Shown here: in pieces, positions 18,247 through 56,684 of the stretch
Layout: the number at the start of each line of letters is the position of its first letter
Position numbering within the stretch: the first letter of the stretch is position 1
Source: Gemmatimonadaceae bacterium
Lineage (GTDB): Bacteria; Gemmatimonadota; Gemmatimonadetes; Gemmatimonadales; Gemmatimonadaceae
Length of the DNA stretch: 64,000 nt
Assembly: GCA_040901985.1 (NCBI GenBank)
Contig: JBBDYC010000019.1
Location: 143,770-207,769, forward strand
Reading direction: 5' to 3'
Position numbers and translations under genes: made by a program
The notes under the pieces: generated by a model
What the model was told of the DNA's origin: nothing
What the model saw: the letters and a program-made list of their open reading frames with translations, nothing else
Databases searched by the model: none

Positions 18247-19347
<1,101 letters not shown>

Positions 19348-19354
19348 CAGTTCT

Positions 19355-19394
19355 TCAGGTGTCAGGTATCAGGTATCAGGTGTCAGGTATCAGG
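19355..19394. repeat. Heptamer tandem array (TCAGGTR)x5 + TCAGG
   Basis: tcaggtg tcaggta tcaggta tcaggtg tcaggta tcagg. Confidence 0.97.
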
Positions 19395-19463
19395 AACAAC
19401 GAAAGGTAGTGGGGGGTGGTGCAACGATGACGGTGCGGTGACGGCGTAGGCTGAGCTTGTGGC

Positions 19464-19916
19464 GTGTACCCGTTCCGTCGCCTCGCCGTCTGGGAGAAGG
19501 CGCATGCCCTGACGCTCCGGTGCTTCCAAGTCACCGAATCGGTCACTGGGAGGCGCTTTCCTGGCCTTGTCGCTCAGTTCCGACGTGCGGTGGCGAGCAT
19601 TCCCGCGAACATCGCGGAAGGGGCCGGACATTCGACCGATCCGCAATTCAATCGCTTTCTCGAGATCGCGATCGCGTCGTCGCTGGAAGCTGACTATCAC
19701 CTCCTGCTCGCGCGCGACCTCGGGGTCATCTCAGGCAAGGACTATGCGCAACTCGAGGCCCGCCTCTCCGAGGTACGTCAGATGCTGACAGGACTGCGGA
19801 AACGCGTGCTGGAGCGAATGCGACTAGCAGGCACGAGACGCGAAGGTGAACGACCAACGCGTGCAAGACGCACGGAAGCAGTAGGAGCGGAAAGAGCGGA
19901 GCGGAGCGAGATGTGA
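19464..19916 (+). CDS. Four-helix-bundle protein (23S rRNA intervening-sequence protein / Avd-like family)
   Basis: FRRLAVWEKA..GLVAQFRRAVASIPANIAEG..F.RFLEIAIASSLEADYHLLLARDLG; low-complexity C-terminal tail. Confidence 0.88.
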   Translation: MYPFRRLAVWEKAHALTLRCFQVTESVTGRRFPGLVAQFRRAVASIPANIAEGAGHSTDPQFNRFLEIAIASSLEADYHLLLARDLGVISGKDYAQLEARLSEVRQMLTGLRKRVLERMRLAGTRREGERPTRARRTEAVGAERAERSEM

Positions 19917-19925
19917 AAGGTGAAA

Positions 19926-19952
19926 GGGGGGAGGCCGTACCGGCCTCCCCCC
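19926..19952. terminator. Perfect 12-bp hairpin, possible terminator for hppA (minus) and/or the four-helix-bundle gene
   Basis: ggggggaggccg-tac-cggcctcccccc; minus strand continues tttcacctttcac. Confidence 0.6.
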
Positions 19953-19982
19953 TGACACCTGACACCTGACACCTGACACCTG
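19951..19982. repeat. Heptamer tandem array (CCTGACA)x4 + CCTG, inverted relative to 19355-19394
   Basis: cctgaca x4 then cctg; reverse complement TGTCAGG is a rotation of TCAGGTG. Confidence 0.97.
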
Positions 19983-19996
19983 CAGTTGTAGGAGTA

Positions 19997-22057
<2,061 letters not shown>

Positions 22058-56566: not shown

Positions 56567-56684
56567 CACGTGGACGGTTCGGGGAGCCGGAAAGCTATGC
56601 CGCAGGAGCGTGAGCCGGGAGGTGGAAGGTGGGAGTGCGCAGGCGCGCCCGGCAGTTCCCGGCGCGCCTCTCTCCCCCGCCATA

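Follow-up and report, generated by a model that had tools for sequence, protein, structure and literature searches.

A four-helix-bundle gene within inverted heptamer arrays in Gemmatimonas, and the genome-wide arrays that tend to share its unit

In the REP-RAYT systems, as described by Nunvar et al. (2010; PMC2817692), a single gene lies between two inverted repeats which are also abundant throughout the genome, where they are often paired in inverted orientation. The gene coevolves with its repeat, and orthologues located at the same site carry different repeats and are more diverged than their neighbours; the RAYT protein is a tyrosine transposase of the IS200/IS605 type, and the REP itself is a palindrome headed by GT(A/G)G (PMC2817692). 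A related arrangement is found within rRNA genes. The intervening sequence (IVS) of the Coxiella 23S rRNA is described as having a 28-bp stem and heptamer repeats, as being cleaved by RNase III and as containing a decaying ORF, and horizontal transfer of Leptospira IVSs between species is reported in the same paper (PMC4990558). The passages on the four-helix-bundle protein family in a preprint on CPR rRNA (10.1101/2024.02.27.582315) mention it only inside rRNA insertions. Among four-helix-bundle proteins, Avd is described as a pentameric, positively charged barrel (PMC6182149), and the homology is noted in PMC10053308.

Intergenic arrays of 7-mers have been reported separately, with the units GGGAATC in Xanthomonas (PMC4692102) and TAACTGA in Beggiatoaceae (PMC4679880). 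As presented in these two papers, such arrays have few units, form many convergent pairs and are found in ribosomal-protein operons, with the G-rich strand after stop codons and the antisense one before starts; they are described without a mechanism, G-quadruplexes or binding by S1/Csp/Csr being proposed. No mention of four-helix-bundle genes was found in the main texts of either paper, while in the Xanthomonas supplement (PMC4692102) a GGGAATC array overlaps the start of XCC0516, a solved pentamer. No link between the four-helix-bundle family and dispersed heptamer arrays was found in the literature searched, which lay mostly outside subscription journals.

The stretch of DNA analysed here (the window, 64,000 nucleotides) belongs to a Gemmatimonadaceae genome of 2.64 Mb, 99.97% complete, denoted G000. 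A 649-bp junction (19348-19996) separates ychF (18247-19347; TIGR00092, 470 bits) from hppA, which encodes a sodium-translocating pyrophosphatase (19997-22057; NF001961, 992 bits). Both host genes are on the minus strand, and the ORF contained in the junction is on the plus strand (19464-19916, GTG start, 150 aa). An earlier note, made from the sequence before any database search, had assigned this ORF to the four-helix-bundle/23S-IVP family (S23p / 23S_rRNA_IVP), and profile searches agree: the product matches TIGR02436 at 98.4 bits (cut-off 24) and PF05635 at 101.2 bits (cut-off 33.8). PF05635 is the only Pfam profile matching the protein, the gene holds no transposase domain, and the PF05635 match is the only one in G000, this being the sole copy found.

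The gene is bracketed by the terminal inverted heptamer arrays which the note had described, and which TRF recovered as period-7 arrays: TCAGGTR x5.7 at 19355-19394 (left arm, G-rich on the plus strand, where the minus strand would form a C-rich 5' leader of ychF) and CCTGACA x4.6 at 19951-19982 (right arm, whose G-rich strand is the minus strand and which follows closely on the stop codon of hppA). Paired in silico, the two arms give an RNA duplex of -57.7 kcal/mol, with about 32 base pairs predicted on either strand. The perfect 12-bp hairpin noted beside the right array is present at 19926-19952 (stems 19926-19937 and 19941-19952); it is retained in four of the five gene-less junctions described below and is likely the terminator of hppA. 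The 'second heptamer', GTGAAAG, exists as well (x2.1 at 19913-19927, plus strand, directly after the stop of the gene), but is not a separate element: it covers 19913-19934 and belongs to the same AGG period-7 family as the arms, and with the right array it makes up an inverted pair of its own around the hairpin. The ends of the cassette show no evident direct repeat or target duplication. Outside the arrays, the first AG is preceded by a loosely defined flanking motif whose last base is C, and the repeats are tandem 7-mers, not palindromes. The note had seen no such array elsewhere; arrays of this kind are in fact scattered over the genome, and a degenerate, gene-less one lies within the window, at 56618-56668 on the plus strand.

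Two -10-like hexamers are candidate promoter elements: TACCTT on the minus strand (19403-19408), facing ychF from just inside the left arm, a loose form of which is found in 42 of 42 orthologous cassettes, and TAGGCT on the plus strand (19447-19452), 11 nt before the GTG of the four-helix-bundle gene. Across the orthologues, [TC]ANNNT precedes the start of the cassette gene by 5-7 nt in 38 of 42 cases (by 11 nt in G000). A scan of 19200-20100 for sigma-70 promoters and U-tract terminators scored neither, and the promoter and terminator readings at this junction are drawn from conservation only. Throughout G000, TANNNT shows a strong preference for the same distance of 5-7 nt from predicted starts (180 of 2,296 genes, vs about 5-10 per position elsewhere), which suggests that leaderless mRNAs are widespread in its lineage.

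The AF2 model of the protein (pLDDT 94) has a predicted four-helix-bundle fold like that of XCC0516. Foldseek aligned it to XCC0516 (2GSC) with TM 0.88-0.90 and to Avd (4DWL) with TM 0.76, the sequence identity with Avd being 12%, and also matched it to BT_0352 (2RLD). By analogy with the five chains of 2GSC and with the account given in PMC4990558, a homopentameric ring may be expected. Purifying selection acts on the gene, for which the median dN/dS is 0.21 over 433 of 496 pairwise comparisons; its GC3 is 0.67 vs 0.87 for ychF. No residue-to-base code emerged from a comparison of residues with arm units, the trends visible by eye (H at position 73 with AAG, R with GAG, and Q or L with CAG; D at position 59 with AGG) going with inconsistent unit phasing and one to three informative independent pairs at most. 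In G020 (L060) the gene has lost conserved residues and sits on a long branch; its arms are nearly gone, as are the arrays of the genome (2 matches), possibly a case of joint decay.

The site was followed across Gemmatimonas in genomes which are mostly fragmented assemblies. The 56 loci examined provided 47 complete ychF-hppA junctions from 46 genomes; G023, counted twice, has two differing ychF-cassette-hppA junctions in one assembly (L044 and L079), probably due to mixed strains in the bin. The cassette gene is present in 42 of the 47, and is thus largely, not entirely, fixed and syntenic in the relatives. The five short junctions are read as losses, since they nest among carriers and three of them (G024, G013 and G058) keep the internal motif or remnants of the arms; for these three, the retained parts led us to reject the alternative of a pre-insertion site. 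The other two, in G046 and G015, keep only a hairpin and likewise nest among carriers. The arm unit differs greatly from species to species, with correlated changes in the left and right arms (19.2 vs 9.1; 0 of 10,000 shuffles, 42 orthologous cassettes), and the own partner arm ranks among the top three in 29 of 42 cassettes. In G060 and G044 (L058 and L067), an extra inverted array after the right arm gives a second hairpin at the hppA end.

The history of the gene differs from that of its neighbours in several genomes. In G047, G009 and G051 the flanking ychF and hppA genes are 93-94% and 91-93% identical, and the four-helix-bundle genes belong to different clades; when five other loci were compared, G009 and G051 were the two best matches of G047 at four, and the best match at the fifth was also one of them. 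Similarly, the flanks of G043 are 93-96% identical to those of G059 and G046, and its gene falls in the clade of G047, G005 and G008. The host tree was built on flanks of equal length, 7 of the 47 junctions being dropped for short flanks, and was complemented by pairwise identities. AU tests on the gene tree rejected G047+G009+G051 (p=3e-5), G043+G059 (3e-7), G043+G059+G055 (4e-8) and G068+G070+G016+G004+G022 (2e-67); the grouping G041+G065 withstood the test (p=0.055), and both control pairs already formed clades on the gene tree. The tested groups came from host data, though a quick gene tree had been seen beforehand.

Host identity is 89-100% in most 100-bp intervals and 57-76% in the cassette gene, dipping elsewhere only in the nearest 100 bp. 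A drop confined in this way to the cassette and its nearest 100 bp would fit homologous recombination with short tracts, and recombination within the flanking genes is the likely route. Low identity of the gene, taken alone, was rejected as a proof of transfer, because fourfold sites saturate early: they are near saturation in this gene, at 0.36-0.61 even between some co-inherited pairs. Replacement is therefore argued here from tree topology and from protein signatures held in common, with no appeal to distance. Judged on these, the cassette is laterally replaced at the ychF-hppA site by copies from other Gemmatimonas species. The proposal that gene and arms form a unit holds, as both travel together: the arms covary and follow the clade of the gene, and replacement is confined to the cassette.

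In G000, 76 period-7 arrays with an AGG core were detected, or 79 with a second definition. The counts at periods 8, 10 and 11 are 3, 5 and 6, so that the period-7 excess is not due to chance; periods 6 and 9 gave 112 and 122 AGG-core arrays, an excess ascribed to codon periodicity. Most arrays (77 of 79) contain 3-6 units. Among neighbouring arrays within 150 bp, 17 of 18 pairs consist of a G-rich arm followed by a C-rich arm and none has the reverse order, with arms more alike within pairs than between them (16.5 vs 12.2, p=1e-4). Gene calls were made with our own codon model, and ribosomal genes were named from their translations; on this basis, of 66 intergenic arrays, 46 have their outer end and 12 their inner end 20 nt or less from the end of an ORF, and many arrays are located at ribosomal-protein operon junctions. 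Several unit types are found in this genome, which has one PF05635 gene. The array at 56618-56668 carries a 26-27-bp GC-rich spacer common to arrays at five other loci, all unlinked (C9:62012, C9:128285, C9:145829, C19:94676 and C12:19013); spacer-plus-array modules have therefore been copied between loci, which implies a sub-family of gene-less modules. The longest pair (C9:189890-190056, 11 and about 9 units of the cassette-arm type) is found between rpmB and a sugar-nucleotide dehydratase-like gene. G000 gave no match to the Y1 transposase (PF01797), the one recombinase family covered by the search, and none to reverse transcriptase (PF00078).

The gene-inside-arms layout recurs at other loci. 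Within the genus and order, 56 other PF05635 loci were collected, 51 of them with enough flanking sequence. Paralogues do carry flanking arrays: period-7 arrays are present on both sides at 27 of the 51 loci (5 at period 8), with the same polarity in 26 of these 27, and ordinary G000 genes have arrays on both sides in 1 case out of 2,275. A second set of 80 PF05635 loci was taken from genome contigs and reduced to 65, mostly cross-phylum, by leaving out 15 orthologues of the ychF-hppA site. Arrays on both sides were found at 47 of them, two of which rest on runs of N, compared with none or one when control periods were used, and with 0 of 53 in flanks taken farther away.

Three divergent paralogue clades (L084-L116) occupy several sites in the genus, with arms typical of each clade (by eye, of the GATGCGG, GAGCGAG and GGGAGAG types). 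One such cassette, of about 630 bp (L097, G018:C117), is located between convergent genes where G000 has an 11-bp gap (C8:182086-182096), which is a clean empty or remnant site. At the junction after rpmB in G049 (L206), a run of 8-mers (CACAGAGG type) is found instead of heptamers; 8-mers of this type may accompany GxxExxY genes.

The occurrences of five unit types were tallied over 55 genomes and compared with the arms of the cassette. Removal of 7 cassettes without an arm call and 3 with too few genome matches reduced the 42 cassettes to 32 scored ones. The 'control' columns of the unit-pattern searches are period-7 patterns themselves, and were not used as nulls. Arm type coincides with the dominant type of the genome in 24 of the 32 scored genomes, against a shuffle mean of 6.7, a comparison in which kin are not independent. 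Among the 8 mismatches, G042, G056, G043 and G070 are clear, G041 and G051 match a second abundant type, and G007 and G049 look misassigned by the rule. The earlier note had considered that arrays might be scattered genome-wide independently of the gene: they are scattered without it, but are not independent of it, as their unit tracks the cassette.

Individual junctions gave a similar picture. An array follows the stop codon at 31 of 47 rpsD junctions and at 24 of 30 rpsJ junctions. In genomes with a cassette, array pairs compared with the cassette of the same genome score 0.46 vs 0.11 at rpsD (top quartile in 22 of 27) and 0.42 vs 0.14 at rpsJ (14 of 19); the signal at fusA is weaker (7 of 15). 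At rpsD, each of G009, G047 and G051 has a unit of its own, between genes 96-98% identical, and at rpsJ the pairs are of GAAGG type in G043 and G057 and of CAGG type in G046, the surrounding genes being 98-99% identical; overall, rewritten rpsD and rpsJ pairs lie between flanking genes 94-99% identical. Five of ten fetched G047 sites, chosen for their GAAGG pairs, were also compared. G009 and G051 carry their own types at three of them and decayed GAAGG arrays at the other two, which points to the type of G047 being the older, and G010 has one arm of each type at one of the five. At the level of these alignments, arrays at orthologous junctions have been rewritten to match the resident cassette; no donor more than 90% identical was found for any rewritten pair, and import from a donor fits as well as rewriting in place. 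At the rpsD-rpoA and rpsJ-rplC junctions (L175-L254) a conserved, hairpin-like segment of 80-110 nt lies downstream of the variable array pair, before rpoA or rplC, and is possibly a ribosomal-protein leader RNA.

The correspondence is not strict. G042 and G056 have 99% identical cassettes, yet carry GAAGG pairs genome-wide, with 186 and 135 matches vs 6 and 8 of the cassette type, and G043 keeps 86 CAGG matches. These old-type arrays are read as the outcome of recent swaps followed by a lag, and they also count against a strict dependence of arrays on the cassette. The same applies to G046 (100% complete) and G015, which have no match to the gene and yet contain 39 and 73 CAGG-type matches. 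Array density is lower in the 10 gene-less genomes, with a median of 24.5 per Mb vs 55.9 in the 45 others (p=0.009, kin again not being independent).

The reading we favour, to which we give slightly better than an even chance, is that the cassette protein binds its own 7-base unit and steers the unit of the gene-less arrays of its genome, the cassette being itself replaced at ychF-hppA. An incoming cassette would displace the resident one, and its product, a predicted Avd-like pentameric ring, would bind the cognate 7-base arrays. Host enzymes would then rewrite arrays with a bias toward the cognate unit, ectopic recombination or template switching between arrays being favoured. The bias might be produced by the ring keeping cognate single strands together, or might arise if those arrays that lie at gene ends in highly transcribed operons were under selection to suit the resident protein. 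The cassette would thus change first and the arrays later, with a lag. Arms stay with the clade of the gene while the majority unit appears to change, the opposite of what neutral conversion predicts, and a trans-acting factor would therefore be called for; since the sole product of the cassette is a predicted Avd-like ring, we infer that it biases array copying or imposes selection. Recognition of its own arrays by the protein is likely, in view of array rewriting and unit tracking. A bolder version, in which four-helix-bundle proteins drive the turnover of tandem repeats in a sequence-specific way, a horizontally acquired and non-catalytic pentamer binding about five of its own 7-mers and causing the host to convert dozens of arrays to the new unit without any transposase or reverse transcriptase, is possible but doubtful.

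The same observations could be obtained if the arrays were host RNA hairpins homogenised by ectopic recombination and the gene a passenger, the match between them deriving from shared donors or joint conversion. Arrays hug stop and start codons, by their outer rather than inner ends, and ribosomal-protein operons, as do those described in PMC4692102 and PMC4679880; they persist in the gene-less G046 and G015; and the rpsD pairs of G009 and G007, which the gene tree places as sisters, have a common spacer, as co-import would produce. Neutral conversion, however, should overwrite incoming arms, and instead the arms follow the clade of the gene and the genome follows the arms. A passenger role would also leave unexplained why this gene, and not the 2,275 ordinary ones, sits within inverted pairs across phyla, and why it is under purifying selection, and we hold it to be unlikely. 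A minimal mobile element moved by host enzymes, with gene-less pairs and solo arrays as decayed past insertions, would explain the paralogue clades with clade-typical arms at several sites (by eye), the cassette of about 630 bp in G018 facing an 11-bp gap in G000, the rpsD junctions devoid of any pair, and one G047 pair which resembles a cassette minus its gene. It appears clearly improbable when set against the fixation of the ychF-hppA copy at one site across the genus, ends with no evident target duplication, the lack of Y1 transposase and reverse transcriptase matches in G000, and the size of the rpsJ, rpsD and fusA junctions, 0 of 104 of which could hold the gene, the longest being 331 bp among the matches listed.

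The earlier note had also proposed an mRNA-level intervening sequence, in which the arms of a hppA-ychF read-through transcript would fold into a stem and be cut by RNase III, as in 23S rRNA IVSs. The cassette gene runs antisense to the two host genes, the arms are predicted to form about 32 base pairs on either strand, and the Coxiella IVS, which has a stem of 28 bp along with heptamer repeats and is cleaved by RNase III (PMC4990558), offers a precedent. The conserved -10-like motif of ychF inside the left arm and the terminator-like hairpin of hppA inside the right one suggest separate transcripts, which would put the arms probably on different RNAs and weakens this proposal; elsewhere, moreover, cassettes lie between convergent genes. 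We regard it as very improbable.

Steering of the arrays by the cassette protein would connect two open questions, namely the role of the very common S23p/four-helix-bundle proteins and the excess of intergenic heptamer arrays, and makes both directly testable. Natural swap experiments are available in Gemmatimonas, where G047/G009/G051 and G043/G059/G046 have, at the same site, a different cassette and a different genome-wide unit. If the protein drives rewriting, a second example of REP-RAYT-like genome dynamics would be at hand, with an Avd-like binder instead of a nuclease; a replicator-like system of this kind, if true, would explain the long-noted excess of heptamers in bacteria. From the sequences compared here, it is likely that the cassette protein governs a common and so far unexplained class of bacterial repeats.

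Compared with known systems, the cassette has in common with rRNA IVSs the S23p protein family, long-stem terminal inverted repeats and heptamer repeats, but lies between ychF and hppA, not in 16S or 23S rRNA, and has a promoter-like motif of its own; the Coxiella IVS differs further, as the cassette gene is under purifying selection and is accompanied by dozens of gene-less arrays. The Avd fold is shared with diversity-generating retroelements (TM 0.76 to 4DWL), whereas G000 has no reverse transcriptase match. Insertion sequences and MITEs are set apart by the cassette having neither a transposase domain nor an evident target-site duplication. The G000 arrays resemble those of Xanthomonas and Beggiatoaceae in being intergenic, of fixed polarity at ORF ends and in convergent pairs, and differ in that most Gemmatimonas units are without three-G tracts and that the unit changes between close relatives. 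With REP-RAYT systems the cassette shares a gene delimited by inverted repeats which are abundant genome-wide and coevolve with it; the differences are an all-helical protein without a transposase domain, tandem 7-mers, and a host genome, G000, without a Y1 transposase match. Having neither an HUH transposase nor a palindromic REP, the cassette is not a member of the REP-RAYT group, but it follows the logic of that group, in which one gene and a genome-wide repeat coevolve.
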